DNA of 64,000 bases from an uncultured Fidelibacterota bacterium (GCA_902602795.1 CACKSF010000001.1:5601-69600); one strand, 5' to 3'; numbered from the stretch's first letter, positions 42,736-62,395 are shown. Notes: generated by a model not told the origin, from the sequence alone. Made by a program: numbers and translations.

Positions 42736-42775
42736 AGCCGCCTGATGTGCGGCTTTTTTCGTTTATAGACCTACC
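42736..42775 (+). repeat. junction repeat A, diverged copy (A0)
   Basis: AGCCGC-CTGATGT-GCGGCTTTTTTCGTTTATAGACCTACC: hairpin, T tract and GTTT..TAG box in the same layout as the A family. Confidence 0.45.
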
Positions 42776-42808
42776 TAATGTGTTAACTAAAATAAAAGGA
42801 GACACATC

Positions 42809-43063
42809 ATGTCAAAAAATAAAAAACAACAATTAAAGGATATTAAGACTGAAGAATTAGATGTTAATGGTAATCCAATAGACCCTAATAGAGAATACAT
42901 TGGAAATAAAGTTAAAGTACCGATGGCATCTTTAAATTCATCTATTTATAAAACACCCACTACTATAATACTCAAAGGAAAACCAATAACGTCAGACAAA
43001 AAGAAGAAAGCAAAGTTACTTGAATTCATAAGTAGAGCCCCCATTAGTTTTGATTCAGAATAG
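42809..43063 (+). CDS. hypothetical lysine-rich protein
   Basis: ORF preceded by a strong SD (AAAGGAGA-N6-ATG). No motif recognised. Confidence 0.5.
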   Translation: MSKNKKQQLKDIKTEELDVNGNPIDPNREYIGNKVKVPMASLNSSIYKTPTTIILKGKPITSDKKKKAKLLEFISRAPISFDSE

Positions 43064-43240
43064 AGAAACTGTTGCCAGTTTATTCTTCAAGAGAACTGGC
43101 GTACCCTATCAGAACTGGATTCAGGCATGGGCAGTGACAAAACTGCAAAAACAAAAAGGAGGGGATACAAAATGTCATTGTAATAAGTCATCACGCCTTA
43201 CCAGAAAAGATGAATAGAAAACGTGATTTTGTTGTGCAAG

Positions 43241-43289
43241 AAGCCCCACATTAGTGGGGTTTTTTTTTGTGGGATGATGGGTAGATTTG
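43241..43289 (+). repeat. junction repeat A1
   Basis: AAGCCCCACATTAGTGGGGTTTTTTTTTGTGGGATGATGGGTAGATTTG. Confidence 0.85.
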
Positions 43290-43363
43290 AACTTTAAGTA
43301 TTTTTTATTTAAGTATAATTTAACTATTATTAAATAATATTTAACCAAAATAGATTATAAAAT

Positions 43364-43858
43364 ATGATTAAACATTTACTATTACTTCTATTCATTGGAT
43401 TAGCTTGGGGGCAAGAAGACTTAGTAATTAAGAAAGCTGAAAGTAGCATTAAATTGAAAAATGGTCAAAAACTAATTATCAGATATACTAATGTGGAATC
43501 AAATGTAGTCCTTATCACTGAAGGAGAGTTTAAAAGCGTTGATAACGACTTTTTGATGATTAGTACTGAAAATGTAATTGCTGAAAAAATATCTCTACCA
43601 TCAATAACAAAGATTACTGTTCCATCAAAAATTCCAGCCAATATAAGTTTTATAAAAGGCTCTTGCTCTGGGGCTGGAATTGGTTTGATATTAATTGGTA
43701 TAATGGCTTATAACGACCCACTTAATTCTATAGCTGCACCTGGTTTTGCAATGGTGGGGGCTTTTTTAGGTGGTTTAGTAAGTTATATTGCTCCAAAATT
43801 TAGGAAAACTAAAGGCTACTTAATTCAAAATGATGAGTGGAAAATAGTAAATGACTAA
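43364..43858 (+). CDS. signal-peptide protein with C-terminal glycine-zipper membrane anchor
   Basis: MIKHLLLLLFIGLAWGQ signal; C-terminus GSCSGAGIGLILIGIMAY...VGAFLGGLVSYIA. Confidence 0.6.
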   Translation: MIKHLLLLLFIGLAWGQEDLVIKKAESSIKLKNGQKLIIRYTNVESNVVLITEGEFKSVDNDFLMISTENVIAEKISLPSITKITVPSKIPANISFIKGSCSGAGIGLILIGIMAYNDPLNSIAAPGFAMVGAFLGGLVSYIAPKFRKTKGYLIQNDEWKIVND

Positions 43859-44768
43859 ATACCTTATACTATCAATATTCATTGGGTTGGCTTGGGGGCA
43901 AGATTTCAATCAGAAAGGCTACTTAAGAAATTTAGAAGCATCAATTTGCATGAGCCATTGTGGTGCATATTACCTTGAGGACGAATTAGGATATTTTCTT
44001 AATTACATATCTGATGAAAATGATTCATTAAATTTAGAATATTATTTAAATAGATTCGTAAATATTGAGGGAGATTCAATTTCTTGTACCGAATGCATTG
44101 GCATTGATGTAATAAGAATTGATATTTCAAATGATTGTGATTTACCAGTTGATTGTTTTGCTCACCCCTGTTCAACAAGTAACTGTTTTTCTCATCCAAC
44201 TGCTGAATGTATCCCAAATTATTGTGGAGGCTGTTGGTCAGACTACTACTTAGATAGTGAATTAATAGAGTGTGAAGTTCCTGAAGGATGTATTGATTTA
44301 ACAGGAGTTGATTTCGGTGAATGTGAGATGGCTCTTGGCATCGGTTGGGTTAATAATAGCTGTGAATATATTTCAGGATGCGATTGGATTGTAGACAATG
44401 TGGATTTTAGTGAAGCCTTTTTTTCTTCTATGGATAGTTGTCAACAAACCTGTATGGTTTTACATAATGATGAAGACCCTTTATTTCCTAGCCATTATTA
44501 TATCTATAATAATTATCCAAACCCATTTAATCCTTTTACTACAATAAGATACTACTTACCAGAAGATAGGTTAGTAATTATCACGGTTTATGACTTGCTT
44601 GGAAATGTCATTAAACATTTAGCTGATGAGGTTCAAAGTTCTGGTTACAAATCAATCCAATGGAATGCTACAAACAATCAAGGCCAGCCAGTATCAGCAG
44701 GAGTATATCTCTACAGCATTGAGGCGGGAGAGTTCAGACAAATTAAAAAGATGATATTATTGAAATAG
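43851..44768 (+). CDS. cysteine-rich secreted protein with T9SS sorting domain
   Basis: Signal MTKYLILSIFIGLAWGQ, more than 20 Cys, C-terminus NYPNPFNPFTTIRYYL...GVYLYSIEAGEFRQIKKMILLK. 8-nt overlap with the upstream gene. Confidence 0.75.
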   Translation: MTKYLILSIFIGLAWGQDFNQKGYLRNLEASICMSHCGAYYLEDELGYFLNYISDENDSLNLEYYLNRFVNIEGDSISCTECIGIDVIRIDISNDCDLPVDCFAHPCSTSNCFSHPTAECIPNYCGGCWSDYYLDSELIECEVPEGCIDLTGVDFGECEMALGIGWVNNSCEYISGCDWIVDNVDFSEAFFSSMDSCQQTCMVLHNDEDPLFPSHYYIYNNYPNPFNPFTTIRYYLPEDRLVIITVYDLLGNVIKHLADEVQSSGYKSIQWNATNNQGQPVSAGVYLYSIEAGEFRQIKKMILLK

Positions 44769-44786
44769 AATTAGCTATATGCATTC

Positions 44787-44836
44787 AAGCCCCGCATATG
44801 TGGGGTTTTTTGTTTGTGGGATGATGGGTATATTTA
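44787..44836 (+). repeat. junction repeat A2
   Basis: AAGCCCCGCATATGTGGGGTTTTTTGTTTGTGGGATGATGGGTATATTTA. Confidence 0.85.
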
Positions 44837-44839
44837 TGG

Positions 44840-44950
44840 ATGGGATACGGGAGAACATTAGAAGAAAAAATAATTATTGGAGTTTTTTTAATAGGGATGT
44901 TAGCTTGGTGGGCTTACAACGAATATAAGATAGATAACCCAGATGAATAA
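44840..44950 (+). CDS. possible 36-aa single-TM peptide
   Basis: MGYGRTLEEKIIIGVFLIGMLAWWAYNEYKIDNPDE. Starts 4 nt after the A2 box, and its stop overlaps the next ATG (ATGAATAA). Below the ORF-track length cutoff. Confidence 0.35.
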   Translation: MGYGRTLEEKIIIGVFLIGMLAWWAYNEYKIDNPDE

Positions 44951-45191
44951 GCACTTAACATTATTAATGTTTTTCTTTTTAGCTTTTTGGAGTTGTGCCT
45001 CAACCAGCGATGACGCATTAAGGCAACAAGAGAATTTTATAAATAATCATCCTACTTGGAAAGGTAATTCATTTAATTTTGAGAAACGAAAGCCCGAATT
45101 AAACGCTCTTGAAATAATTGAAAAAATTAATAAAGAAAAGAAAATGGACGCTAAAATAGATTCAATCATTTTAAACCAAAGCAAACAATAA
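44943..45191 (+). CDS. small putative lipoprotein
   Basis: MNKHLTLLMFFFLAFWSC signal with Cys; no other motif. Confidence 0.5.
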   Translation: MNKHLTLLMFFFLAFWSCASTSDDALRQQENFINNHPTWKGNSFNFEKRKPELNALEIIEKINKEKKMDAKIDSIILNQSKQ

Positions 45192-45196
45192 TTATT

Positions 45197-45256
45197 TAAG
45201 CTGATACGTCCAGTATAGTGTACTTCTGTCCTTTTAAGACATAAGGGACAAAAGAA
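45197..45256 (+). repeat. repeat B1
   Basis: TAAGCTGATACGTCCAGTATAGTGTACTTCTGTCCTTTTAAGACATAAGGGACAAAAGAA; ~85% identical to B2 at 53779-53839. Confidence 0.75.
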
Positions 45257-45377
45257 ATAAACGCCCCCCTATGCCACCTTCTCAAAGTAGTAGGGGTAGT
45301 ATTATATCTCAAAGATAACTTTCCCCTATAAAAAGGATTTTAAAAAACAATATTTATGGAGAAATGAAAGAAATGAT

Positions 45378-45521
45378 ATGCTAAGAAATCATTTCCAAAA
45401 GAAAGGAAAAGTCTTTTTATATACTAACGCTGAACTTAATGAATTATTATCTGATGCAGATAATAATGATGAAGATTATGATACTATAAATGGTAATGAT
45501 TGGGGTGATGATTGGGAATAA
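45378..45521 (+). CDS. possible 47-aa acidic peptide
   Basis: MLRNHFQKKGKVFLYTNAELNELLSDADNNDEDYDTINGNDWGDDWE; ORF only, no homology evidence. Confidence 0.25.
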   Translation: MLRNHFQKKGKVFLYTNAELNELLSDADNNDEDYDTINGNDWGDDWE

Positions 45522-45872
45522 TAAGATGGGTATTTAAAAATCTTAAAAGATGTATTATATATTTTTAATTAAAATGAAATTTTAACCTTTATACATATAC
45601 CCCTCCCATTATAAACCAAAACAAAGTCCATACGCTCAAAGAATGCGTTTATAGTAAGTTAAATCTGATATTTATTCTCAACTTCCCCGACCCTCTCTTC
45701 TACCTTAAAATAAAATAATATCATTTTTTTTTCTTCATCTGTGAGTTGCAAATGATATAGTGTTTAGGTTTATATTTACTAGCCCAGTCTAACAATATCA
45801 GGTTAGAAAGAAGATGGAACAAGAGATGATTAATCGCACTCGAATAGGGTGTGAATAAAAAAGGCTATAAAG

Positions 45873-46115
45873 ATGAAACTAGGCAACAATTTCCTTATAT
45901 CCATAATGGAGAGACTCGATAGAATTGAGTCATAAATAAATAATCCAAAAGCAAATTCTCGCAAATTATTATCTATTAAAGATATTATTGATTTCTCTGG
46001 AATATCTGATCCCACCATAAGACGATCAATAAAAAGAGGGACACTAAAGGCATATAAGAAAGAAGGGAAGAAGTTGTTTCGAAGAGCAGATGTAGAAAAC
46101 TGGCTCAAAGAATAA
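45873..46115 (+). pseudogene. Xis/AlpA-type helix-turn-helix (HTH_17-like) gene interrupted by an in-frame TAA
   Basis: After TAA at 45933-45935 the same frame reads INNPKANSRKLLSIKDIIDFSGISDPTIRRSIKRGTLKAYKKEGKKLFRRADVENWLKE*, an excisionase-like HTH. There is no ATG/GTG/TTG after the stop. TAATG overlap with the primase gene. Confidence 0.5.
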
Positions 46116-46345
46116 TGGACTATCAACATTTTTTTGAGAATTTAGTGGGCGTTAAAAAAATCAAATGGTCAGGCAAACAAGGCACTGGATGCTGTCTTTT
46201 GCCTGATCACGATGATAGAAATCCGTCATTCTCATTCAACATTGAGACAGGTCAAAACTTCTGTCATTCTTGTGGTTGGAAAGGCAACGCATACACACTT
46301 GCCAAAGAGCTAAATATGGACAACCCTTGCCATATACTCAAATAA
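46115..46345 (+). CDS. CHC2 zinc-finger module of a DnaG-type primase
   Basis: CLLPDHDDRNPSFSFNIETGQNFCHSCGWKGNAYTL = CxxxH...CxxC zf-CHC2. Confidence 0.7.
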   Translation: MDYQHFFENLVGVKKIKWSGKQGTGCCLLPDHDDRNPSFSFNIETGQNFCHSCGWKGNAYTLAKELNMDNPCHILK

Positions 46346-46418
46346 TTGCAAATCTATCAAGCACAAGCCTAATAACACTATTAAAAGCCATTCTAGAGAC
46401 ATAGATGAGGTAGGAATC

Positions 46419-47012
46419 ATGAAGATGTATGAAGAACTAAAAGAAAGGTACGGAAACAGGATAAAACTCGGAGATAATTACAAGGATAAATACGTCGGAA
46501 AAAGTGATAAAGATGAGGCTGTTTTCATTTATCCAAAAGGCATCAAGATTCATAAGAAGTACTGGATTAAAGAAGCATCAATAGACACTTCTAATCAAAT
46601 CTTTATGATGGATGAATTGTTAGGTTTTGATAATTCTAAGCCACTCTACTTATTTGAAGGTGAAAAGGATGCTATAGCCTCAAAATTACAAGGAGTATCA
46701 TTCTTTTGCGGTGCTACTTCTATCCCAAAAAATATAGATGCTTTGTATGAGTTTGATGAAGTCGTACTCATATACGATAATGATGAAGCAGGTGTAAATG
46801 GTGCTAAAAAGGTAGCTGAACGGATTAAATCAGAATCACCAACAACCAAAGTACTAATTGCTCAATGGGATTCATCACTTCCAAAAGGATATGATGTTTA
46901 TGATGATGGTAAAAAGACTGGATTCGCCAAGGTAGATGAAGCCATTGCAAATACAATTATATATGATTTAAAAATACCAACAGAATTAGAAGGATTTACA
47001 ATTATGACATGA
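46419..47012 (+). CDS. Toprim-domain primase module
   Basis: LYLFEGEKDAIA (catalytic Glu) and VLIYDNDEAGVNGAKK (DxD). Ends at a TGA that is in frame with the following P-loop segment. Confidence 0.7.
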   Translation: MKMYEELKERYGNRIKLGDNYKDKYVGKSDKDEAVFIYPKGIKIHKKYWIKEASIDTSNQIFMMDELLGFDNSKPLYLFEGEKDAIASKLQGVSFFCGATSIPKNIDALYEFDEVVLIYDNDEAGVNGAKKVAERIKSESPTTKVLIAQWDSSLPKGYDVYDDGKKTGFAKVDEAIANTIIYDLKIPTELEGFTIMT

Positions 47013-47974
47013 AAAAAAGCAAGTAATACCGTTCCTAAACCAACAGAATGGATAATAGAAAATGTATTGCCTAAGGGATTTAATTCGTGTCTTGCAGGAA
47101 CGACTGGAAGTAAGAAATCTATGTGGGCAATCCAATTAGGTTTGTCAGTTGCGAATGGGAAAAAGACTTTTGTGGAAACCGTATCAAAGGTGGAAGTAGA
47201 AAGGTGTTATTTATTGATACGGAGATAGGGCAAGATGAATTACTTCGCAGGTATCACAAAATAAAAAGCAAAATAGATTGGAAAGGTGATGACAATATCA
47301 TAATGATGTCTAAAGGCGGAACAACGATGGACATTTGGGAACAAACAGAAAAAATGATTCAGGCGTATAGACCCGAAGTAGTCATCATTGATAGTATGTA
47401 TAATGCCACAAGTGTTTCAGATTTCTCCAAATCAACTGGGATGAGCAAGGTAACAGATGCTCTTGCTACTCTTAAAGATAAATACGGAGTTACTATTTTA
47501 ATTATTGCTCATTTCAATAAAGGTAATGATGAACAGGTAACTCATATAGATAGGATACAAGGTTCTGCAGTTTTCAAGAACTCTATTGAATTTCAAATAT
47601 GTATGATACAGACTAACATTGATGATTTCAATATCTTCCAAGTACAAAAGACTAGAGGAGTTCCTTTTGACAGATCTTACATTGGTCTTAAGTGGGATGA
47701 TTTTTGGTTTACTACAAAAGGTATCATTGAAGATATATCTGATTACCTTGTGACTGAACATAAGAAAAAAAAGTGGACTTCTGTATTGGAAGATTTGCCT
47801 GACAGGTTTGATACAAAGGATTGGCTGAATGTTTTTAATAGCAAGTTTGAGATGTCAGAAAGAACTGGAAAAGTTTGGCTTAAAGAGGTTAGTAGAACCC
47901 AAATGGTAGATAAGATTTCTCACGGAGTTTATGAGAAGAAACTTAAACTAATTGAAGAGAATGAAATTGATTAA
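47013..47974 (+). pseudogene. RepA/DnaB-like P-loop helicase (AAA_25-like), frameshifted
   Basis: Walker A segment ..CLAGTTGSKKSMWAIQLGLSVANGKK lies in the Toprim frame (47013-~47165). The remainder (VLFIDTEIGQDELLRRY.., VVIIDSMY Walker B, IIAHFNKG) lies in the frame of ORF 47123-47974. The shift maps to the gggAAAAAg run near 47158-47163. Confidence 0.65.
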
Positions 47975-48277
47975 TTGGTGGAGAGGTGTACTTCACTATT
48001 GCACTTTCTCTCTATTTATGATTGAAAGTGAAGATAGTGAAGATAATGAAGTATAGTTCTCTACTAATTAAACAGGAGATTAATAAGATATGCTGATAAA
48101 TAGGATAGAAACAGGCGGTGATGACTAAAGGCAGAGTGGACAACCGAGATGTTTGTTGGGGGTCTAAGGAGGAAAACCACTCTACCTCATTATCAAGTCT
48201 TCTATACTGCAAGACCAAGCATCTTTTAATATTAGGCATTTTAGAGCATCCTAACATTGACACCCATCACAAGGACT

Positions 48278-48472
48278 TTATATTGATTGGGAAGAGAAGA
48301 ATTTTAGTATCAGAACAAGTGGGTCAATTTTTCCAGTCATAATCATGTATACAAAAATAGAAATAGCTATGAGGATGATAAACATGCCTAAACATCCTAT
48401 GGCGAATAGTTTACTGATTTGGTTAATGGAGTATCTAACGAACTCGAAAAATATGGAAAGCCATTTAGACAT
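48278..48472 (-). CDS. small membrane protein
   Basis: 64 aa with a hydrophobic core LFAIGCLGMFIILIAISIFVYMIM. Confidence 0.4.
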   Translation of the reverse strand: MSKWLSIFFEFVRYSINQISKLFAIGCLGMFIILIAISIFVYMIMTGKIDPLVLILKFFSSQSI

Positions 48473-48495
48473 AGGATGCCTGGATGATTAATTAC

Positions 48496-48639
48496 TTATA
48501 CATCGTATGCAAAACCAAGACCACATAAGGCTACAATAATTGCATATCTATAGCTACCGCTATCTATTGATCTTTGCAGAGTCATTCCAAATAGGATTGC
48601 AAACATGAGTATACCCATCAATCTCCATCTTGGCAACAT
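48496..48639 (-). CDS. possible 47-aa membrane peptide
   Basis: MLPRWRLMGILMFAILFGMTLQRSIDSGSYRYAIIVALCGLGFAYDV. Fills the gap between co-directional small TM genes; below the ORF-track cutoff. Confidence 0.3.
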   Translation of the reverse strand: MLPRWRLMGILMFAILFGMTLQRSIDSGSYRYAIIVALCGLGFAYDV

Positions 48640-48669
48640 CCTTCTTTTTTTTAACCAATCAATCATTAA

Positions 48670-49017
48670 TTATTGGTCTCTAAAAAGTTTAAACCCAACA
48701 ATACTAAATGTGATATTGAATATTGCTATAATACCAAGCCAATTTGTTTTTTCACCTTTTTTTGTTGGTTTACTGAAAAGTAATGGAAGCCCAACTTTGG
48801 TTCGTTCGATACCTTTTTCTTTTTTTAATTCTCCAGCCCATTTGTACCAATCTTTATCATTATCAAAATCAACATTTGACTTTTCATATTCCCAATCTAT
48901 TTCACTGGTATCCAACCATTTATGTACTGGACTAAATCCTAGTCCAAAAACAGTTATCAGGAAGACCAAAACAGAACCAGTCCCAACCATAACTAATAAT
49001 TTTTGTTTGTCATTCAT
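48670..49017 (-). CDS. two-TM membrane protein
   Basis: 115 aa with N- and C-terminal TM helices around a charged loop. Confidence 0.5.
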   Translation of the reverse strand: MNDKQKLLVMVGTGSVLVFLITVFGLGFSPVHKWLDTSEIDWEYEKSNVDFDNDKDWYKWAGELKKEKGIERTKVGLPLLFSKPTKKGEKTNWLGIIAIFNITFSIVGFKLFRDQ

Positions 49018-49025
49018 AATTAAAA

Positions 49026-49325
49026 TTAATAATTATCTTTCCTTCTTGTCAGAGTACCTATCCAGGCATGAAAGTTTTTCTTGTTCGCATCAGAATAATA
49101 ATAATAAACAGCTACCAATAATATGCTTAATGGTATCGTAAAGACTAAAAACATTAGAAGAAGTACATTCGCAATGTCTTGTTCAGATTTATTTTTAAGT
49201 AATTTTGGAATCCCTGCTTCGCCTCTTTCATATTTTCCCCAATCTTTTAAAAATTGTTTTCTTTTTACCCAACCAAGGCATAGGACTATAATAAATAAAA
49301 TGATGGTAAATGGTGATAATTCCAT
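49026..49325 (-). CDS. two-TM membrane protein
   Basis: 99 aa with TM helices FTIILFIIVLCLGWV and VLLLMFLVFTIPLSILLVAVYYYY. Confidence 0.5.
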   Translation of the reverse strand: MELSPFTIILFIIVLCLGWVKRKQFLKDWGKYERGEAGIPKLLKNKSEQDIANVLLLMFLVFTIPLSILLVAVYYYYSDANKKNFHAWIGTLTRRKDNY

Positions 49326-49385
49326 TAACTAATTTAAGATATTTAACAATAGGTTCTTGTAACACATATACTACAGGAGTAATTT

Positions 49386-49622
49386 ATGAGTATGAGTGAA
49401 GTTAATAAAGGTGGAAGACCTAGAGAAGAACCCACCAATGTACGCAGTGTTAGATTGCCCAACAGGATTTGGAAATTGGTACAAAAGGCATCGAAAGGCA
49501 GTCGTTCAGTCAATGAATATATTCAAACAATAATTGAGAATGATTTGATTAAACGGAAAATGCTAAAGAAGTCAGAACGGAAAAAACTATCCTCTAAAAC
49601 CTCTACGAAAAGGAGTCAGTAA
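49386..49622 (+). CDS. ribbon-helix-helix (CopG/Arc-like) DNA-binding protein
   Basis: GGRPREEPTNVRSVRLPNRIWKLVQKAS....SVNEYIQTIIENDL fits a beta-alpha-alpha RHH pattern. SD AGGAG is present; TAATG overlap with the integrase. Confidence 0.5.
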   Translation: MSMSEVNKGGRPREEPTNVRSVRLPNRIWKLVQKASKGSRSVNEYIQTIIENDLIKRKMLKKSERKKLSSKTSTKRSQ

Positions 49623-50734: not shown

Positions 50735-50763
50735 TAAATTAGGTTACAGCTTCCAAGCGGATA

Positions 50764-56057: not shown

Positions 56058-56153
56058 ATGTAAAATGTATATTTTACAAATAAATCTAAAATTAATAACG
56101 ATAGATGATGTTCAATTAGTCTGATTTCTAAACTGCCATCATCTTATATTTTA

Positions 56154-56198
56154 TTAATCCTCATTCCCTACAAAGTATTTGAAAAGAAAATCCAAAGT
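56154..56198 (+). repeat. repeat C2
   Basis: TTAATCCTCATTCCCTACAAAGTATTTGAAAAGAAAATCCAAAG. Confidence 0.7.
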
Positions 56199-56206
56199 TT
56201 TTAATT

Positions 56207-56228
56207 CTTGTGGCGATGGTTAGATTTA
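56207..56228 (+). repeat. junction repeat A, right half only
   Basis: TTGTGGCGATGGTTAGATTTAA directly after C2. Confidence 0.6.
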
Positions 56229-56274
56229 AATATGAAAAACACAAAGTTAGTAATAGGAGTAGTAGAATTTTTAT

Positions 56275-56320
56275 AAGCCCCACATTCGTGGGGTTTTTTG
56301 GGAGGATGATGGTTAAATTA
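56275..56320 (+). repeat. junction repeat A7
   Basis: AAGCCCCACATTCGTGGGGTTTTTTGGGAGGATGATGGTTAAATTA. Confidence 0.8.
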
Positions 56321-56336
56321 AAATTATCTGGTCATT

Positions 56337-56610
56337 ATGAAAAAACTTATCATTAATTATATTTTCATTACTTTTTGCTTGTAACGGTTCTAAACTTGTT
56401 AATGTATTAAATTTTGTTGAAAGAGGGGGATTGACCTATTACTATAAATATTATTTTTTTAAAGAACACGATGTATAGATCTCCAAAATTTCTTTAGCAG
56501 AAAAGCTATTAAGTATTGGCTAACGGGTGAAGTTCAGCTGGAAGGAATATTTAAAAATGGGAACACCGAGGGGACATCGAAATATTGTTCTCTGAGGAGC
56601 GAAATAAGGG
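56337..56610 (+). pseudogene. decayed YwqK/MORN-variant-repeat lipoprotein gene
   Basis: MKKLIINYIF.. signal, then a frame change to ..LLFACNGSKLVNVLNFVERGGLTYYYK.., stops, then ..LTGEVQLEGIFKNGNTEGTSKY in another frame. Confidence 0.4.
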
Positions 56611-56632
56611 TTCGAATCTCTTCCACTCCGCA
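56606..56632 (+). other. orphan tRNA-like 3' fragment (T-arm + acceptor 3' strand)
   Basis: AAGGG-TTCGAAT-CTCTT-CCACTCC-G; no matching 5' acceptor or anticodon arm upstream. Confidence 0.5.
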
Positions 56633-56845
56633 CCCTATTTTATAGGTTTCCGCTCTAAAAACTGATCATCATTACATTTTTGATTCTCATTTACTTTATG
56701 AGAATCTATTTTAATCGGGAAAATTGCGACCCTCCTTCTTTTTCGACATTTTCGAGGACTTAGATATAAACAGAAAAACTAATCCAAATTCATAAGTCAG
56801 ATAATGCACATCAAGGAGTTTTTTTATTTTTGAGAAAAAGAAAAT

Positions 56846-57379
56846 CTATTTTATAAAAGAAGGATTATTTTCATCAGATTTTATCCAATCATTTACCCAT
56901 GTTGGTAATTTAGCCTTTGGGATATTAAAATTAAAAATCTTTGAGGCTTCTACAGATTTAATCAATTTACCATTTTTAACGACCCCTGTCCTTGCTAATA
57001 AAGTTGAAGTAATTTGATTTTTAACAATGAATTTATGTAGATAATATGTCCACTTATCATCTACATAAATGATTTTTGTTGTCATTTTAAATTTTTCACC
57101 AAATGGAATTCTGTAACGATACTTAATTGAAGCCCCAGCGACGGTAAAATAGATTTTATTTTTTTTTGCTGTACTAAAAAAACCCGTTCTAAAACCGTGA
57201 TTAAATCTTCCTATATCAGCTAGAGTTTGGTAGCGACCATTATTTATTTCCAAATATGGATCTATGTCTGAAATACCACATCTCATTGAAAGAGAAGTCT
57301 CATCTTCAATTTTTACTTTTTTTGTAAACCTTGATGCAAAATAAGCTTGTAATAGAATGAAAAATGGATAATTAAACAT
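56846..57379 (-). CDS. hot-dog-fold acyl-CoA thioesterase-like protein
   Basis: ..RCGISDIDPYLEINNGRYQTLADIGRFNHGFRTG..FTVAGASIKYRYRIPFGEKF resembles the 4HBT_2 thioesterase family. I prefer the Met start at 57379 to 57463. Confidence 0.55.
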   Translation of the reverse strand: MFNYPFFILLQAYFASRFTKKVKIEDETSLSMRCGISDIDPYLEINNGRYQTLADIGRFNHGFRTGFFSTAKKNKIYFTVAGASIKYRYRIPFGEKFKMTTKIIYVDDKWTYYLHKFIVKNQITSTLLARTGVVKNGKLIKSVEASKIFNFNIPKAKLPTWVNDWIKSDENNPSFIK

Positions 57380-57564
57380 TTTTTTGTTTTTGAAAATTAA
57401 TTTAAAATTTAAAGTATTTATTGATATTGGTATTAATATTACAAAAACACAAAATACTTTCATTAAATATTAAAGAAAATAAATAGTATTAATAAAATAA
57501 AAATTAAAAAGTCAATTTAGGGGAAACTAGGTATTTTATTTAAATAGAAATATCTTTGTGTATC

Positions 57565-57614
57565 AAGCCCCATATTCGTGTAGTTTTTTATTTGTAGGTT
57601 GATGGGTAAATTTT
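57565..57614 (+). repeat. junction repeat A8
   Basis: AAGCCCCATATTCGTGTAGTTTTTTATTTGTAGGTTGATGGGTAAATTTT. Confidence 0.75.
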
Positions 57615-57626
57615 AAAGTGCTTTTT

Positions 57627-59021
57627 ATGCAAAAAAACATGCCATTATTTATATTTTTTGTATTTTCCAATTATTTAATGGCTGAATGTTCAGATCTTGA
57701 TTCATTACAATGCGTCCAGTATCCTGAGTATTGTAGTTGGGATCAAAATCTTCATCAGTGTCGGGACGTTACTGTTGATACATTGGGTTTTAATTACGAT
57801 TGCATTCCATTTAATGACTTTAGCTCAATTCCTATAAATACTACTGATTACGCTGAAATGTGTATCGATTATGTTGGATTACCTCCCAGTGTTGATTGTG
57901 GAGAAGGTGTACCTATTCCTGTTTATGTTGATGGCATATCTATGAATGTTGATCAACCACAAGGAGAATGCGATCATCCAGATTTCAAGGGTGGTTGTTT
58001 CGTTGGCTCTAGAGTTGGAAGGGTGCAAGGTATAGATATTGATGGTGAGCATATGCCTGAAGTCATTTGGGTATATTTTTGTCGTTCTGCTGGTCAGGAA
58101 TATTTCAATGAATATGGCATTGTTTCTGTACAAATGATAGGATATAATACAGAAACAGGAGCAACTTGTTTTTTTGAGTCACCAGACGCTGTTGGTGATA
58201 TGATTCAGTCAGAATATTTAGAATTTGATGAAAATGGTTTATTAGATGGAGAATTGCCTGGTTATGGTAATCCTTGGTTTGATGAGGCATGGCATTCCCC
58301 GGCTGTTTCTCAAGCAAATTGTATATCTTGTCATACAAGCGACCCTTTTGTTCATGACCCTTGGATTGACCAAGCTAAATTACCAAGTGACCCTACACAA
58401 ACAGTGGTTCCTAAACTGGAATCTTCAGATTTACTATATTTTGCGGTTGGAGGATATGGAAGCCAATGGGATAACAGAAGCATACATGTTGAGGGCAATC
58501 AATGTTTGAGTTGTCACAGATCCAATATGATACTTGCTTATGAAAACTTTGAAGCTTTAGGTCATGTAATGATAAATGATTTTATGCCACCACATCAACC
58601 AGGGGCCCTTTCTGATGACTATAACGAACTTATTCAATGCTGGATTAATGGACCAGAAAATACAGATGGATGCGATTGGATAATTCCTCCGGGAGGAGAT
58701 TGTGAAACTCAGGTGCTATCTATCCAAAACGATCATATCAGAAATAATTTCTTTCTCCATCAAAATTATCCAAACCCATTTAATCCTTTTACTATTTTAC
58801 GATACGACTTACTAGAAGATGGGTTAGTAAATATCACTGTTTACGATATACTTGGCAATGTAATTAATCAGTTGGTAAATGAGGTTCAACATTCTGGCTA
58901 TAAGTCCATTCAATGGAATGCAACCAATAATCAAGGTCAGCCTGTATCTGCAGGAGTCTATTTATATACTATAGAAGCAGGAGATTTTAGACAGACCAAG
59001 AAGATGATATTGTTAAAATAG
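57627..59021 (+). CDS. secreted di-haem c-type cytochrome-like protein with T9SS sorting domain
   Basis: Signal MQKNMPLFIFFVFSNYLMA; two CxxCH motifs (NCISCHTSDPF, QCLSCHRSN). C-terminus NYPNPFNPFTILRYDL...GVYLYTIEAGDFRQTKKMILLK. Confidence 0.7.
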   Translation: MQKNMPLFIFFVFSNYLMAECSDLDSLQCVQYPEYCSWDQNLHQCRDVTVDTLGFNYDCIPFNDFSSIPINTTDYAEMCIDYVGLPPSVDCGEGVPIPVYVDGISMNVDQPQGECDHPDFKGGCFVGSRVGRVQGIDIDGEHMPEVIWVYFCRSAGQEYFNEYGIVSVQMIGYNTETGATCFFESPDAVGDMIQSEYLEFDENGLLDGELPGYGNPWFDEAWHSPAVSQANCISCHTSDPFVHDPWIDQAKLPSDPTQTVVPKLESSDLLYFAVGGYGSQWDNRSIHVEGNQCLSCHRSNMILAYENFEALGHVMINDFMPPHQPGALSDDYNELIQCWINGPENTDGCDWIIPPGGDCETQVLSIQNDHIRNNFFLHQNYPNPFNPFTILRYDLLEDGLVNITVYDILGNVINQLVNEVQHSGYKSIQWNATNNQGQPVSAGVYLYTIEAGDFRQTKKMILLK

Positions 59022-59034
59022 AAATATTTTAAAC

Positions 59035-59140
59035 GCAAAACTCTATATTAGTGTTTTTTTGTTTGTGTTAATCTTAATTCCTCAAAAAGTATTTAAAAGA
59101 AAGTCCAAGGTTTGTTGTTTGTGGTATGATTTGTATATTT
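59035..59140 (+). repeat. junction repeat A9 split by repeat C3
   Basis: GCAAAACTCTATATTAGTGTTTTTTTGTTTGTG | TTAATCTTAATTCCTCAAAAAGTATTTAAAAGAAAGTCCAAGGTTTGTT | GTTTGTGGTATGATTTGTATATTT. GTTTGTG is present on both sides of C3 (59068-59116). Confidence 0.75.
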
Positions 59141-59150
59141 TTGTTGAAAA

Positions 59151-59636
59151 ATGTTTAATAAACTTAAGGTGAAGGAATTATCTATGCAAAAAATAAGTAT
59201 AATTATACTAATCTCAACTTTTCTTTTTGGAAGTGATATTAATAAAATAAAAGAAACAATTCATTCCAATTGGGATAAAGTAGCACAAAAAAATGTTACT
59301 GGTTTAATTCATCCTGATGGTAGTTGGATGGCAAATTCTGAAGGAGGATTTTGGAATTTTCAGACAGTGCAAGATAATAAAACATTGATAGAGGATTCGC
59401 CAAATACTTTAAATCTTAAAGCACACCATATCCATGTAGATTTTTATGGATCAAAAAAAGATTTGGCATATGCTGTGTATTATTTATCAGGAAGTATCGA
59501 AAGAGAGGGAAAAGTTATGATTTCAAATTATCGAACTCGTGCATCCAATTTATTAAAAAAAGAGAAGGGTAAATGGCTTACTGTCGGTGCTCATTATAGC
59601 CCTATGCACTCTGGATCTGGTGTAAAATTCGATTAA
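59151..59636 (+). CDS. secreted NTF2/SnoaL-like (DUF4440-like) protein
   Basis: Signal peptide (the true start may be MQKIS at 59184). Alpha+beta cone-like pattern ending ..KEKGKWLTVGAHYSP. Weak family call. Confidence 0.45.
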   Translation: MFNKLKVKELSMQKISIIILISTFLFGSDINKIKETIHSNWDKVAQKNVTGLIHPDGSWMANSEGGFWNFQTVQDNKTLIEDSPNTLNLKAHHIHVDFYGSKKDLAYAVYYLSGSIEREGKVMISNYRTRASNLLKKEKGKWLTVGAHYSPMHSGSGVKFD

Positions 59637-59660
59637 AATATTAAAAAGTAAACACAAAAT

Positions 59661-59712
59661 AAAAACCCCGCATTCGCGGGGTTTTTTGTTAGTGGAATGA
59701 TTGTTAGATTTG
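59661..59712 (+). repeat. junction repeat A10 (perfect hairpin with compensatory changes)
   Basis: AAAAACCCCGCATTCGCGGGGTTTTTTGTTAGTGGAATGATTGTTAGATTTG. Confidence 0.8.
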
Positions 59713-59715
59713 ATA

Positions 59716-60990
59716 ATGAATGAGTCGATAAATATTTTTACTCAAAGATTCAACGATATAAAAATTGAAAACGAGTATTTAGATTTTAAATGGCCGCGAA
59801 TTTGGCCTTATCTTAAAGCTTTTCTATTTTTAACTTTGCTAATTAAAGCATTCGTTATGTTTGAAGACATAAAATTACTTGGATTACAAACACCTTATAT
59901 AATCTATCACATCTTTGATCTTATAATATTTGTTGTTTTCATGTTTATAATATCCAACAATAATAAAAAGAAATACCACCAGATATATATGAGCTTATCT
60001 TGGATAGGATTTATGAATATTGGTACCTGGACATATTACTTTTCACCATTTGATTTTCCTCCAGGAGAAGGAGTAGTAATCACATGCATAATTCTTCCAC
60101 TAACTATTTACCCTTTTCATTTAGTGAACGGGGTTATTTCTGCGTTATTTACATCAATTCCAATTATGGTAATGTTAATTCAAAAGGGAATGATGACCAA
60201 TGATCAAATTACATACCTATTTATTTTGCCTTTAATTTTTATTTTATTTGCCAAAATCAATTTCGAGAATAGATCGAGGAAAGATTTTATTAAAAGCTTG
60301 AAGCTTGATTCGAATAGAAAATTAATGAGACAAACACTAAAACGTTATTTTGGTGAAAATCTAACCAAAAAAATTCTGCACAATCAGGGAGATCTTAAAG
60401 GAGACAACATCTGGATTTCAATATCGTTCACTGATATTTCATCATATTCTACCATTATTGAACACATGTCCCCAGAAATGGTTGTAAGGTTTTTAAATGA
60501 ATATTTCTCTGCTATGCATGACGTTATAGATAAATATAAAGGTCAAATTGTAAACTATATTGGTGATTCGGTTATGGTAGTTTTTGGAGCTCCAAAAAAG
60601 GTAGAGGATCATGAAATAATGTCATTGAAATGTGCTATTGAAATGAGAGAAAAATTAGAAAAATTGAACAGGATTTGGGATGAAACAGAGTTTTCAAGAT
60701 TTTGGAAAAATCATGGTATTGAAAAAATAACTGCGCGCACTGGAATCCATACAGGTAGTGTAATTGCTGGAAATATTGGAAGCGATAGGATGTTACAGTA
60801 TAGTACTATTGGGGATACGGTCAATGTTGCTTCAAGATTAGAGCAGGCCAATAAAGATTTTGAATCTGATATTGCTTTTAGCCATGAAATTTACAATGCC
60901 TTAAACCAAAAATTACATTCAAAAGCTATTTTCCTTGGAGAAATAAAATTAAAAGGGAGAGAAAATGCTACAAAAGTATATTCAGTTTAG
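59716..60990 (+). CDS. membrane-anchored class III adenylate/guanylate cyclase
   Basis: About 6 N-terminal TM helices. Cyclase domain ISISFTDISSYS (metal Asp), NYIGDSVMVVFGAP, RTGIHTGSVIAGNIG, YSTIGDTVNVASRLE. The ATG lies 3 nt after the A10 box; the ORF-track TTG at 59701 lies inside the repeat. Confidence 0.85.
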   Translation: MNESINIFTQRFNDIKIENEYLDFKWPRIWPYLKAFLFLTLLIKAFVMFEDIKLLGLQTPYIIYHIFDLIIFVVFMFIISNNNKKKYHQIYMSLSWIGFMNIGTWTYYFSPFDFPPGEGVVITCIILPLTIYPFHLVNGVISALFTSIPIMVMLIQKGMMTNDQITYLFILPLIFILFAKINFENRSRKDFIKSLKLDSNRKLMRQTLKRYFGENLTKKILHNQGDLKGDNIWISISFTDISSYSTIIEHMSPEMVVRFLNEYFSAMHDVIDKYKGQIVNYIGDSVMVVFGAPKKVEDHEIMSLKCAIEMREKLEKLNRIWDETEFSRFWKNHGIEKITARTGIHTGSVIAGNIGSDRMLQYSTIGDTVNVASRLEQANKDFESDIAFSHEIYNALNQKLHSKAIFLGEIKLKGRENATKVYSV

Positions 60991-61353
60991 ATTATCTAAA
61001 AAAATATAAGAGATTTTTACAAGAATAATTATATAGGAGATGGATTTTTTTTTATAGGACCTCCCATAAATCATTTAATGAGATTAACAACATTATTGTT
61101 CATGGTATTATTATCTTAGTGCTAGACTAATAAAGTAAATCACTTTGAAGTAACAACATAAATTGAAAGTCTATTTTTGACCATGTTAAATCTTGTAGTG
61201 ATGGAGGTATTGAGTTGATCACCGATAATGTATGGGGTAATTAATCAAAAGTTTAAAAGTTAAAACATATTAATTATGACTAAATCCTACAGATCTAAAA
61301 TTTTAATTTTACACCTGTGCCCTATTTTAGGGAAGCATAAAGATTTATAGACC

Positions 61354-61408
61354 AAATACTTTCCATTTATTTGTGAAGTTTTTTGTTTATGAGATGATTG
61401 GTAAGTTT
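61354..61408 (+). repeat. junction repeat A11 (degenerate)
   Basis: AAATACTTTCCATTTATTTGTGAAGTTTTTTGTTTATGAGATGATTGGTAAGTTTT. Confidence 0.6.
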
Positions 61409-61646
61409 TACTTTTAGTTACAATTTCTCTTTCCCGATAGTAATTTTTCCAATGATCGAAACCTTCAGAGCCTATGTTAGAAAGCATATTAAATACTTTT
61501 TTTATATTGCCCTCATATTAGCTATAAAGGAATGGGCAGATTTGTTTAGAGGTGATGAGTTAGATTTATTGAGGTTGATAGGAAACAGTGCGTTAGCATT
61601 TTATTTTTGGGGTTTATCAGTAGGAAAATTTGAATTTAGAGAATAA
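61398..61646 (+). CDS. small two-TM membrane protein
   Basis: The true start is probably the internal Met (MIETFRAYV..). TM helices YFFYIALILAI and ALAFYFWGLSV. Confidence 0.4.
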   Translation: MVSFTFSYNFSFPIVIFPMIETFRAYVRKHIKYFFYIALILAIKEWADLFRGDELDLLRLIGNSALAFYFWGLSVGKFEFRE

Positions 61647-61655
61647 TATTTTAAA

Positions 61656-61931
61656 ATGATTAAAAAAGAATTATCAAATAGATTTAAAAGTCAAATTTGT
61701 TTGGGGTTAGCGTTATTGTTAATAGTTTTGAATTTTATTAGCTCTTTTATTTTAATTGATCCTTATGAGGCCATTAAAGATAATAGCCTTCCATTCATAG
61801 GTGCATTTTTAGGAAGTTATGCCCACTATAGAAAAAAAGATAAAAGCGAGGATTTCACAACTAAAGAAAGACTAATTGGTCTTTTTATAGTTTTTATTTT
61901 AAGTGTTTTATATTTTCAGTTAGTGGGATAA
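61656..61931 (+). CDS. small three-TM membrane protein
   Basis: ICLGLALLLIVLNFISSFILI, LPFIGAFLGSYA, LIGLFIVFILSVLYF. Confidence 0.5.
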   Translation: MIKKELSNRFKSQICLGLALLLIVLNFISSFILIDPYEAIKDNSLPFIGAFLGSYAHYRKKDKSEDFTTKERLIGLFIVFILSVLYFQLVG

Positions 61932-62309
61932 GAAAAAAAGAGATTAGAGCTTCACTACCGTATTATCCCAACGATCTCTGAGGTACCCTTTTTAAAGAAA
62001 TTTTATTGATGGGGAAAATATATAAGACGCGGTTATAAAAAGATATTCCCCCACTAAGCTCTAAAAGTCTTTCTACAAACCTTAGATACATAATTCCATA
62101 CTTTATTCTTAAGCGTTCTTACATGCAATATCTTTTTCATCATTGCAGGAGTAATAAATTTGTTTTCTTTGATAGAGGTGTTTTTTGCAAATATTAAATA
62201 AAGTAATGTTAATGTAGTCATATATTTAAAATTGCGAAATATTCCCCATATTTTTCAAAATGAATGTACCATTTGCTACTTTAAGTAAATGAGGTAAAGG
62301 TGCTAATAA

Positions 62310-62346
62310 CCAAGTGAATAGTTTTCTTGGATTTTTTTGTTTGTGT
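62310..62346 (+). repeat. junction repeat A12, left half ending at GTTTGTG
   Basis: CCAAGTGAATAGTTTTCTTGGATTTTTTTGTTTGTG, followed directly by C4. Confidence 0.65.
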
Positions 62347-62395
62347 TAATTCACACCCTATACACAAAGTATTTGAAAGGATAATTCGAAGTTTC
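62347..62395 (+). repeat. repeat C4 (short form)
   Basis: TTAATTCACACCCTATACACAAAGTATTTGAAAGGATAATTCGAAGTTTC. Joins the CACACCCTAT and CAAAGTATTTGAAA segments that are 41 nt apart in C1. Confidence 0.65.

Follow-up and report, generated by a model that had tools for sequence, protein, structure and literature searches.

A repeat between accessory genes

Why does one sequence of ~60 bases recur, always in the same orientation, between unrelated accessory genes of a marine Marinimicrobia (SAR406) genome, and what does it do there? We followed this repeat, R, through a 64,000-nucleotide stretch of the genome (the window) and through related MAGs and SAGs. In the window, R occurs as 10 full copies, two promoter-side halves, and two hairpin-side halves, all on the + strand and all between 43.2 and 62.3 kb. 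The sequence-only reading of this DNA had described a co-oriented repeat family, and the searches bear it out: nhmmer, with a profile built from the window's own copies, finds the 10 full copies at E = 1e-9 to 3e-17, and a degenerate 27-nt R pattern matches 7 times, with 0.00 matches expected from shuffled sequence. No repeat had been seen by eye in the first 42 kb, and a search of the whole 64 kb with the 24-nt core of the promoter side, in which as many as 7 substitutions were allowed, gives the same picture, with 12 matches, all on the + strand at 43265–61385, and none in 1–42000 or on the − strand. This is a contrast of 12 promoter cores in 18 kb with 0 in 42 kb of core sequence, where the genes are of core type (e.g., PBP1A, LptF/G, and nucleoside phosphorylase) and the conserved R block is absent upstream of them. 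Across the 64-kb window R is thus clustered and not uniformly scattered in the manner of REP-like elements.

The island begins where it had been placed, at tRNA-His (42239–42313) and tRNA-Pro(TGG) (42323–42398, + strand), the latter being its left anchor, and the layout of repeat, ORF, repeat, ORF had also been described correctly. The right end holds as well, at ~62.4 kb beside genes that are conserved in metagenomic relatives, although the cdsA-like identity proposed for that border finds no Pfam or NCBIfam match. The exact 50-nt consensus given earlier has no match in the window within 3 mismatches because the window copies have diverged; they agree with a lineage-wide 60-nt consensus at 35–52 of 60 positions. 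A supposed diverged copy at 42736 was rejected: the stem at that position is the terminator of a SAM-I/IV riboswitch (RF01725; 42618–42741, + strand; 49.5 bits vs a gathering score of 41.1) and does not belong to the R family.

Copy 1 (43237–43295, + strand, as are all that follow; nhmmer E = 1.4e-16) consists of the hairpin AAGCCCCACATTAGTGGGG, a T-run, and a promoter-like block that extends to TAGATTTG; the position at which other copies carry a start codon has no ATG here, and the next ORF begins at 43364. Copy 2 (44782–44842), a profile match that is also a terminator-like site in the terminator scan, comes after the stop codon of a T9SS-tailed ORF (43851–44768), and its fixed-position ATG opens a 36-codon ORF. 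Copy 3 (52100–52158; profile match) has genes on the opposite strand upstream of it and an ORF from 52236 after it, and in the MAG locus L099 the gene downstream of this copy is preceded by a second repeat, box C, and not by the hairpin of copy 3. The fixed-position ATG of copy 4 (52775–52831) opens a 28-codon ORF, which is followed by an esterase ORF at 52976, and that of copy 5 (53843–53904; ATG at 53901), a copy with a decayed hairpin, opens a 77-aa ORF. Copy 6 (54130–54189) lies upstream of an Acyl_transf_3 gene (54411–56057), and a promoter-side half (B-half; 56204–56234), directly 3′ of box C, has an ATG at 56232 that opens a 14-codon ORF. Copy 7 (56272–56323) has a 3-nt deletion in GTTTGTG and is followed by a truncated ORF with a lipoprotein-like signal peptide, and copy 8 (57561–57621), again with a decayed hairpin, has a fixed-position GTG that opens a 467-aa T9SS-tailed ORF. 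Next comes a split copy, in which a hairpin-side half with T-run and GTTTGTG (59034–59067) is broken by box C, after which a promoter-side half (59109–59140) stands upstream of a SnoaL-like ORF (59151). The fixed-position ATG (59716) of copy 9 (59660–59719) opens a 424-aa cyclase, and in copy 10 (61356–61414; nhmmer E = 1.3e-9) both hairpin and box are degenerate. The last hairpin-side half with T-run and GTTTGTG (62310–62342) is joined to box C where the variable region ends on the right. The sequence-only reading had described the incomplete copies correctly: a half copy at 56207, a split one at 59035/59117, and a truncated one at 62310.

The hairpin half of R

The 5′ part of R is a GC-rich hairpin followed by a T-run. 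The stem is perfect, GC-rich, and 8–9 bp long with a 4-nt loop, and the T-run leads into an unstructured conserved block. The mean MFE of hairpins that end at the T-run is −8.9 kcal/mol, compared with −3.7 in shuffled sequence, the consensus hairpin folds at −17 kcal/mol, and the stem varies by compensatory changes (CCCCAC/GTGGGG, CCCCGC/GCGGGG, and CCCCGG/CCGGGG), the second of which is present in copy 9. Upstream of 103 of 129 copies lies the end of a co-oriented ORF that is 60 codons or longer, and the median distance from stop codon to hairpin is 25 nt. In its sequence features, a GC-rich hairpin and T-run shortly after a stop codon, R matches an intrinsic (Rho-independent) terminator, and some copies are picked out by a consensus terminator scan. 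About 29% of R copies are without a good hairpin, and copies 3 and 8 come after genes on the opposite strand, so that their hairpins cannot terminate those genes.

The promoter-like and start-codon half of R

The T-run runs on into an almost invariant block of ~35 nt, TTTTTTGTTTGTGGGATGATGGGTAGATTTGGAT, and then ATG; the consensus from 150 anchored copies reads ...GGGGTTTTTTGTTTGTGGGATGATGGGTAGATTTGGATATG. We collected the loci with a pattern inside the conserved block, so the conservation of the block is partly by construction, but the ATG position falls outside that pattern. The start stands at a fixed position, exactly 3 nt after TAGATTTG, and is ATG in 95 of the 150 copies and GTG in 7 more. 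ORFs that begin at the fixed ATG have a median length of 91 codons, and at least 30 codons are open in 71% of cases vs 8.9% in the other two frames.

Within R, TTTG and TAnnTTTG are both present and conserved, with TTTG 16 nt upstream of the box, a gap that brings it ~3–4 nt closer than in the Bacteroides consensus. TAnnTTTG is the primary-sigma box of Bacteroidetes (PMC7366714), in whose promoters TTTG is near −33. In Flavobacterium psychrophilum the box occupies −12 to −5 relative to the transcription start (PMC9723704), so the predicted transcription start of R coincides to within 1 nt with the A of the ATG and, with the box only 3 nt before the start codon, leaderless mRNAs are predicted. 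We read TTTTTTGTTTGTGGGATGATGGGTAGATTTGGAT as a putative Bacteroidetes/FCB-type promoter in which TAnnTTTG is at ~−7 and TTTG precedes it; the core genes of this window do not clearly show the TAnnTTTG box. From sequence we infer that R would act as both terminator and promoter and that transcription from it would be leaderless.

Conservation of the spacer GTGGGATGATGGG and of the hairpin loop between species goes far beyond the needs of a promoter or terminator and suggests either an extra constraint or recent spread. R might be conserved only as the operator or promoter of one regulon, its tandem TGGGATGA/TGGGTAGA being recognized by a dedicated sigma factor or regulator, and have no role in recombination; the mosaic of genes would then have come from integrative elements at tRNA genes together with illegitimate recombination that chanced on short intergenic regions. 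The spacer does hold an 8-nt imperfect direct repeat, absence of the block from core genes fits a regulon, and R occupies nearly all of the intergenic space, so that any intergenic breakpoint would fall within it. Illegitimate events do occur, e.g., at the T9SS tail fragment that follows the esterase (53710–53755, repeat family D5). We nonetheless consider this explanation, mosaic included, to be unlikely, since the cargo of the cassettes, with 80 Pfam families among 105 proteins, is functionally too mixed to form one obvious regulon, the hairpin sequence is common across species down to its loop although regulation needs no such sharing, and identical modules in front of unrelated genes require a copying process anyway.

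Arrays of R across the lineage

R is common to dozens of species-level genomes. The R profile finds at least 269 copies in at least 114 loci (contig stretches), almost all of them in Marinimicrobia MAGs/SAGs, with a median identity to the 60-nt consensus of 48/60, and R has no match in viral contigs (IMG/VR); the context of R is a bacterial chromosome with tRNAs, PBP1A, and LptF/G. Among the matches listed, adjacent R pairs are co-oriented in 151 of 155 cases and neighboring copies have a median spacing of 927 bp. The proteins encoded downstream of R form 82 clusters among 129.

R is short, abundant, lineage-specific, intergenic, and equipped with a hairpin, and in these respects it resembles a selfish miniature repeat of the REP/BIME, MITE, or Correia type, which would insert between genes and carry its terminator and promoter signals incidentally. 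Such a repeat would not be expected to keep the co-orientation just given, nor to hold the start codon of the downstream gene, as R does in about two thirds of copies, nor to consist of a hairpin half and a promoter half with separate histories, each tied to its own flanking gene (see below). On these three points, REP/BIME or MITE membership was rejected. R also has no terminal inverted repeats, and no copies lie in or beside the core genes of the window, and we regard a selfish repeat as very improbable.

Exchange of cassettes at R

Comparison between genomes answers a question that the sequence-only reading had raised, namely whether variation is at the level of cassettes: related genomes differ by R-bounded cassettes. 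The internal ends of homology blocks between genomes fall inside R in 101 of 196 cases (52%), and R makes up 2.9% of the sequence. Cassettes of the window recur at 80–93% identity in other MAGs with different neighbors; that of copy 9 is 89% identical to its counterpart in L008, and that at 53854–54170 is 91% identical to L072, where the neighbors are different. The same between-genome comparison shows that the hairpin and the upstream gene are inherited together (identity 0.7–1.0 vs 0.3–0.5 for random R pairs), whereas no such link of the hairpin to the downstream gene was found; it is the part of R starting at the last G of the box that goes with the downstream gene. The compared sequences thus point to a real swapping of single genes between genomes at R. 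Because one joint separates unrelated genes in many Marinimicrobia genomes, we propose that the joint also acts as the place where cassettes are joined. Within a locus, R copies are exactly identical over short runs only (median 15 nt, maximum 38), which is marginal for RecA-type recombination.

Box C accompanies R at several of these borders. Copy 1 of box C (50946–50994; repeat families D8/D11) lies downstream of a partial tRNA-Pro; copy 2 (56153–56203) follows the acyltransferase, a linkage that is the same in L018 and L124 at 93.5% identity; copy 3 (59065–59113) is the one within the split R; and copy 4 (62343–62398) stands at the border with the conserved genes, where homology with metagenomic relatives starts at 62373–62396. 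All four are on the + strand. In five metagenomic relatives, box C is found at the edge of the variable region. One form of junction, hairpin, T-run, and GTTTGTG and then box C, occurs three times, at 59034 and 62310 in the window and at 1240 in L018, where GTTTATG replaces GTTTGTG.

These three like-formed junctions, together with the position of box C at the edge in the five relatives, are what might be seen if the invariant joint were the recombination site of a dedicated cassette-capture system, integron-like in function but with another site and enzyme, and box C were its primary or border site. The arrays are co-oriented and single-gene, conservation of the joint between species exceeds what a promoter needs, exact homology is short for RecA, and the inferred cassette limits coincide with a transcript unit that runs from the predicted start to the U-tract, all of which would suit such a system. 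However, in 118 related loci, with 8 kb searched around each match, no recombinase recurs near the arrays, the integrase family of the window is present in only 2, and one serine recombinase was seen once, as cargo. The joint, by eye, is without the dyad symmetry of tyrosine-recombinase core sites, the fixed ATG and TAnnTTTG would already lend the block an expression function, and linkage fades over ~15 nt and not at one visible point, at the low resolution of this comparison. A dedicated capture system accordingly seems quite improbable to us.

Comparison with integrons, mobile promoters, and phage regulatory cassettes

Co-oriented arrays of mostly single accessory genes, a recurring site, and content that varies between strains are features that R shares with integrons and CALINs. 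A complete integron requires IntI, and a CALIN is a cluster of attC sites without an integrase; attC sites are imperfect inverted repeats with extrahelical bases and the core sites R″ (RYYYAAC) and R′ (GTTRRRY), and most integron cassettes lack a promoter of their own and depend for expression on a shared one, Pc. There is no IntI in the window, as had been noted earlier, its only integrase scoring 40.1 bits against a TIGR02249 cut-off of 265 and 35.9 bits against an NF011946 cut-off of 435. R has neither an attC-type imperfect palindrome nor R″/R′ core sites, and here too the sequence-only reading was right: R is a perfect stem with an unstructured block, and the nearest candidate core site, GTTTGTG, does not fit GTTRRRY. 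Unlike integron cassettes, each R cassette has its own predicted promoter block, TTTG...TAnnTTTG, with the ATG 3 nt downstream. With no IntI, no attC-type structure, and a promoter-like block for each cassette, the integron or CALIN reading is left with no positive support. The other suggestion made for this locus, a lineage-specific portable terminator/promoter module, is the one that the evidence favors, with an ATG 3 nt after TAnnTTTG in 95/150 copies and a hairpin with T-run a median of 25 nt after the stop codon.

R also resembles the putative mobile promoters, described as families of conserved 50–100-nt upstream sequences with at least ~80% identity that precede non-homologous genes (Matus-Garcia et al. 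2012, PMC3488235). The likeness is in conserved upstream sequence before non-homologous genes, within and between genomes, and R is such a sequence in length (50–100 nt), identity (~80%), and non-homology of the genes that follow. The category is descriptive and implies no arrays, fused terminator, fixed start codon, or cassette exchange, whereas R forms co-oriented arrays across dozens of species-level genomes; Marinimicrobia were not reported there, to judge from the abstract of that paper.

Promoter-early stem-loops (PeSLs) are mobile regulatory cassettes of T4-type phages (Arbiol et al. 2010, PMC2839356; Comeau et al. 2014, PMC4122927). Like R, a PeSL is a short composite of promoter and stem-loop terminator that fills the interval between the stop codon of one gene and the start codon of the next, PeSLs are concentrated in hyperplastic regions before non-essential genes, often of unknown function, and insertions, deletions, and replacements between related genomes break at the motif. 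The two differ in that PeSLs are in phage genomes and R is in a bacterial chromosome, and in that a PeSL has a sigma-70 promoter with −35 and −10 elements and a Shine-Dalgarno sequence, whereas in R only 3 nt separate the TAnnTTTG box from the ATG, which would leave no leader and no Shine-Dalgarno sequence. Among PeSLs, the place of the stem-loop within the promoter varies; the R hairpin invariably precedes the promoter, and the two have the T-run in common. For PeSLs, experiments have shown promoter and terminator activity as well as mini-circles formed between motifs; for R, promoter and terminator activity are predicted from sequence.

On balance, we think it probable that R is a chromosomal, leaderless analogue of the phage PeSL regulatory cassettes and bounds exchangeable single-gene cassettes. 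R would make each accessory gene its own transcription unit, with the 5′ part acting as an intrinsic terminator for the upstream gene and the promoter block giving a leaderless mRNA whose 5′ end is the A of the ATG or lies no more than 1 nt from it. Recombination inside the joint would then add, remove, and reshuffle single genes in flexible islands. As to mechanism, we infer by analogy with the PeSL cassettes of T4-type phages that this recombination is most likely driven by homology. Homology-driven exchange leaves unexplained the first fusion of unrelated genes to the module at the start codon.

An integrative element at tRNA-Pro

The only integrase in the window belongs to a decayed element (45195–50756, + strand) inserted at tRNA-Pro. 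Its primase-helicase is split into three ORFs (46115–47974), an Arc-like ORF follows at 49386–49622, and the tyrosine integrase (49622–50734), which has an in-frame TAA at 50540–50542, adjoins a duplicated tRNA-Pro 3′ half (50757–50808, + strand), an att-type direct repeat (repeat family D4, 79% over 85 nt). The closest comparison is with the tycheposons and tRNA-linked genomic islands of Prochlorococcus (bioRxiv 10.1101/2020.12.28.424599). Like these, the island that holds the 45.2–50.8 kb element has a tRNA at its start and a partial tRNA repeat inside, with an inward-facing tyrosine integrase at one end beside a small replication module, and with cargo, and decayed elements pile up into an island. 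In layout, the element is tycheposon-like, with integrase and primase-helicase both disrupted. R-like repeats are no defining feature of tycheposons, and the comparison explains how the island is fed, not what R is. Integrative elements that target tRNAs, such as this one, would bring in R-bounded cassettes as cargo and so feed the island; the R-bounded cassettes at 43.2–45.2 kb are indeed flanked by tRNA-Pro and its duplicated 3′ half, an interval that also holds the remnant of the integrase and primase-helicase.

A co-oriented repeat between accessory genes

A direct-repeat search of the window recovered R, the repeat that lies between accessory genes of the variable island, as a family of 53-nt copies at 43.2–61.4 kb. 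A profile made from the window's copies picks out 10 complete copies, each of them on the + strand, at E = 1e-9 to 3e-17; within 1–42 kb it has no match comparable to R. A degenerate 27-nt pattern had seven matches in the window where 0.00 were expected, and the 24-nt promoter-side core of R occurs 12 times at up to seven substitutions, always on the + strand (43265–61385); two further hairpin-side halves are found at 59034 and 62310. The repeat array described in the sequence-only reading is largely real. The copy claimed at 42736 is not R, but the terminator of a SAM-I/IV riboswitch (RF01725, 42618–42741, 49.5 bits with a gathering score of 41.1). The literal 50-nt consensus proposed in the same reading has zero matches in the window at up to three mismatches because the window's copies are fairly diverged, with 35–52 of 60 positions agreeing with the lineage consensus; the profile and the degenerate pattern were used in its place. 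A search of 41–64 kb against Rfam, with E up to 1, gave no family for R or for the second repeat of the island, box C, and only weak terminator-like matches.

R joins a terminator-like hairpin to a promoter-like block and a start codon

The consensus of 150 anchored copies of R, taken from the window and related genomes, is CATCAAGCCCCACATTCGTGGGGTTTTTTGTTTGTGGGATGATGGGTAGATTTGGATATG. The 5′ part is a GC-rich hairpin running into a T-run, with a mean folding energy of −8.9 kcal/mol versus −3.7 kcal/mol for shuffled sequence. The energy is −8 kcal/mol or lower in 58% of copies, and −17 kcal/mol for the consensus. The stem varies in a compensatory manner (CCCCAC/GTGGGG, CCCCGC/GCGGGG, and CCCCGG/CCGGGG), and upstream of the hairpin, 103 of 129 copies have the end of a co-oriented ORF with 60 or more codons, at a median distance of 25 nt. 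The anatomy of the 5′ part is that of an intrinsic terminator, and we would expect it to act as one.

The 3′ part is a near-invariant block in which TTTG is followed, 16 nt on, by TAGATTTG, with the spacer GTGGGATGATGGG. TAGATTTG agrees with TAnnTTTG, the box of the Bacteroidetes primary sigma factor (PMC7366714). An ATG is located exactly 3 nt past the box in 95 of the 150 copies and a GTG in 7 further copies, and the position of the start codon was outside the pattern by which the R loci were collected. ORFs that begin at this ATG have a median length of 91 codons, and 71% of them reach at least 30 codons, versus 8.9% for the other two frames. The start codon is therefore part of R. In Flavobacterium psychrophilum, the box is at −12 to −5 from the transcription start (PMC9723704), and the same spacing applied to R puts the predicted start no more than 1 nt from the A of the ATG, so that the mRNA would be leaderless. 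Promoter activity and this transcription start are what we infer from the arrangement of the block. R leads us to predict leaderless mRNAs as a class for a group whose studied relatives rarely have them: 5′ UTRs of less than 10 nt make up 3.7% in Bacteroides thetaiotaomicron (PMC7366714), and leaderless mRNAs 5.5% in F. psychrophilum (PMC9723704).

We reject a generic housekeeping promoter as the nature of the block: the core genes of 1–42 kb have neither the block nor an ATG-adjacent box upstream. The spacer of the block and the loop of the hairpin are conserved between species beyond what their presumed functions need.

R is found across Marinimicrobia in front of diverse accessory genes

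SAR406/Marinimicrobia are abundant in the ocean and uncultured, and little is understood of how they gain and express flexible genes. A pattern scan for R with one genome per species gave at least 118 stretches, and nearly all of those listed are from MAGs and SAGs of Candidatus Neomarinimicrobiota/Marinimicrobia. The few exceptions among them are short contigs, or chance matches with no profile match; short non-Marinimicrobia contigs that bear R are probably mis-binned. A profile search of the listed stretches found at least 269 copies in at least 114 loci, and among the loci listed, neighbouring copies are co-oriented in 151 of 155 pairs with a median spacing of 927 bp. The window's cassettes are 80–93% identical in nucleotide sequence to those of MAG MED648 and others, and from this and the sources of the listed stretches we take the window to be of Marinimicrobia origin. 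On many long contigs among the matches listed, R is confined to the first or last 8 kb, which fits with assembly breaks at variable islands. We found no account of R in Marinimicrobia in the literature.

In the window, the cassettes encode two T9SS-tailed proteins, small membrane proteins, an esterase, an acyltransferase, a SnoaL-like protein, and a nucleotide cyclase, with a HAD phosphatase and a thioesterase on the reverse strand. Over all collected loci, 105 R-linked ORFs represent 80 Pfam families, the commonest being T9SS sorting domains (12), GNAT acetyltransferases (7), cyclases (5), MAPEG (4), and sulfotransferases (3); by sequence, R-linked ORFs form 82 clusters among 129. One conserved module of ~60 nt fronts accessory genes of at least 80 protein families in dozens of species-level genomes.

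A serine recombinase occurs once among the 105 ORFs. It is a 551-aa protein with a Resolvase domain, encoded beside tRNA-Asp (85–174) at 124–1776 (−) of the related locus L110; its gene begins at R's fixed ATG, so it is predicted to be expressed from the module itself. In the window, directly after the esterase stop, 53710–53755 holds the last ~13 codons and stop of a T9SS C-terminal sorting domain (family D5), and it looks as if the esterase has replaced most of a T9SS-tailed gene. After the seventh copy of R, 56327–56640 has a truncated lipoprotein-like signal peptide ORF and then a stretch ending GGGTTCGAATCTCTTCCACTCCGCACC; this stretch (~56560–56630) resembles a tRNA 3′ end by eye but is called by neither ARAGORN nor Rfam.

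Gene content changes at R

Of the internal ends of homology blocks between genomes, 101 of 196 fall inside R, which is 2.9% of the sequence. R takes up the greater part of each short intergenic region, so this count demonstrates a gene-by-gene break of synteny at these junctions, and not that R is chemically special. The 77-aa ORF at 53854–54170 is 91% identical to its counterpart in locus L072, where the neighbours are different, and the cyclase cassette is 89% identical to that of locus L008, in which the same integrase and partial tRNA-Pro are followed by cassettes in another order. In metagenome contig L124, the ORF82 cassette (44943–45193) adjoins the right-hand core gene. Locus L126 has an additional R and a 38-aa gene at the place of the window's box C, and in locus L121 the acyltransferase is at most 1.1 kb from the core gene, compared with 6.2 kb of cassettes between them in the window. 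In no metagenomic relative with the right-hand core gene as anchor does the window's left flank appear, which prevents a reconstruction of the ancestral empty site.

A per-position linkage test was applied to pairs of R copies with only one flanking gene in common. In the 17 pairs that share only the upstream gene, hairpin identity is 0.7–1.0, versus 0.3–0.5 for random pairs of R, and it has dropped to the background level where the box ends. With only the downstream gene in common (54 pairs), identity is at background across the hairpin and climbs from the last G of the box. The travelling unit is therefore GAT-ATG, the ORF, and the hairpin that follows it, with the junction within the invariant block T6-GTTTGTGGGATGATGGGTAGATTT, where resolution of the crossover is low because the block hardly varies.

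The reading best supported by these results is that R is a portable terminator-promoter-start module with exchange at its conserved joint. Each accessory gene would be an independent, probably leaderless, transcription unit, for which R supplies stop signal, promoter, and leaderless start at the place where gene content changes. The sequence-only reading had offered a portable terminator/promoter module as its alternative, and R's anatomy and fixed start codon argue for it. R would also be a compact natural expression cassette for bacteria of the FCB group and, if confirmed, a sequence tag by which flexible islands, as well as assembly breaks, could be recognized in MAGs of Marinimicrobia.

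Homology-driven exchange of cassettes over evolutionary time is plausible. R copies of one locus share only short runs of exact identity (median 15 nt, maximum 38 nt). The short identity, the excess conservation, and the first fusion of unrelated genes to the module at their ATG, which homology-driven exchange does not explain, keep two rivals alive. One is a putative dedicated mechanism, site-specific or of capture, acting on R, which we consider improbable; the other, that R is purely the mark of a regulon, we regard as unlikely.

The closest described system to the portable module is the promoter-early stem-loop (PeSL) of T4-type phages, a composite promoter/stem-loop motif of hyperplastic regions. 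PeSLs are the sites of insertions, deletions, and replacements that distinguish related phages, and they form mini-circles (PMC2839356, PMC4122927). Unlike PeSLs, R is chromosomal, is common to many species of one bacterial phylum, is based on the TAnnTTTG box, and is joined to a start codon with no leader. The R pattern had 0 matches in IMG/VR viral contigs, and a PeSL-like phage origin is unsupported given this result. If confirmed, R would extend to bacterial chromosomes a principle of mobile regulatory cassettes so far seen in T4-type phages. R also agrees with the descriptive class of putative mobile promoters (PMC3488235).

Box C and the right border

Box C is ~48 nt long (AATCCTCATTCCCCGCAAAGTATTTGAAAAGAAAGTCC and then a T-run) and is found in the window at 50946, 56153, 59065, and 62343, as well as in many related loci. 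In other genomes, it often stands immediately before the promoter block in place of the hairpin; in the window, hairpin, T-run, and GTTTGTG directly precede it twice. A diverged box C is the right edge of the variable region in five metagenomic relatives, where homology to the window starts at 62373–62396. A non-coding stretch of ~170 nt (62398–62568), which separates box C from the 3′ end of a 214-aa gene, is ~80–85% conserved in six metagenomic relatives.

As a long shot, the invariant ~30-nt joint could be the site of a putative dedicated Marinimicrobia gene-capture mechanism, with cassettes as leaderless transcript units from start codon to terminator U-tract, and box C as array border or primary site. 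Were this true, it would be a second, integron-independent way to capture single genes and express them at once.

In contig L124 (CENJ01163849), the reverse complement of 9687–11517 carries the acyltransferase, box C, and promoter half of window 54402–56235. This block is beyond the conserved genes that close the window's island, on their other side, which suggests a second variable region just past the window's right end.

The tRNA-Pro element and its integrase

The region begins at tRNA-His/tRNA-Pro, and the 3′ half of tRNA-Pro is duplicated at 50757–50808. Just before this repeat is a tyrosine integrase gene (49622–50734, +) with an in-frame TAA at 50540–50542 (context IQGT, stop, IYDLKLLMGHSSVTTTEVY); the homologue in L008 is intact and reads through, and the window's gene is either a pseudogene or carries a sequencing error. 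Upstream are an Arc-like ORF and a primase-helicase (46115–47974, +) whose zinc-finger, Toprim, and helicase (AAA_25) parts are spread over three consecutive ORFs, which suggests that the replication module has decayed. The tRNA-Pro element is a decayed integrative element, of the type from which tRNA-linked islands of Prochlorococcus are built (bioRxiv 10.1101/2020.12.28.424599). Its limits include two R-bounded cassettes (43.2–45.2 kb), and thus such elements can carry R cassettes.

The integrase is ruled out as the array's recombinase: it is tied to the tRNA-Pro repeat, has the in-frame stop, is not IntI-like, and has family members near only 2 of the 118 listed R loci. It scores 40 bits against the integron-integrase profile, with a cut-off of 265, and R matches integrons or CALINs in no defining feature testable here; the integron-like interpretation first given to the array is unsupported. 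With 15 tRNA genes in 620 kb of R-bearing loci, enrichment is also too weak for a general association of R arrays with tRNAs.

The SAM-I/IV riboswitch (42618–42741, +) is just 3′ of tRNA-Pro, within the limits of the element, and precedes an 84-aa ORF (42809–43063) with no Pfam match; this stretch has a 78%-identical counterpart in MAG locus L087. Short GGGACA-type repeats and a 66-nt repeat (family D10, 76% identity) are located at 42490–42530, 45195–45260, 50895–50925, and 53777–53842, near the tRNA-Pro repeat and at two places within the island, and also in L001, L008, L064, and L079. Successive integrations may have left them behind as arm-type integrase sites.
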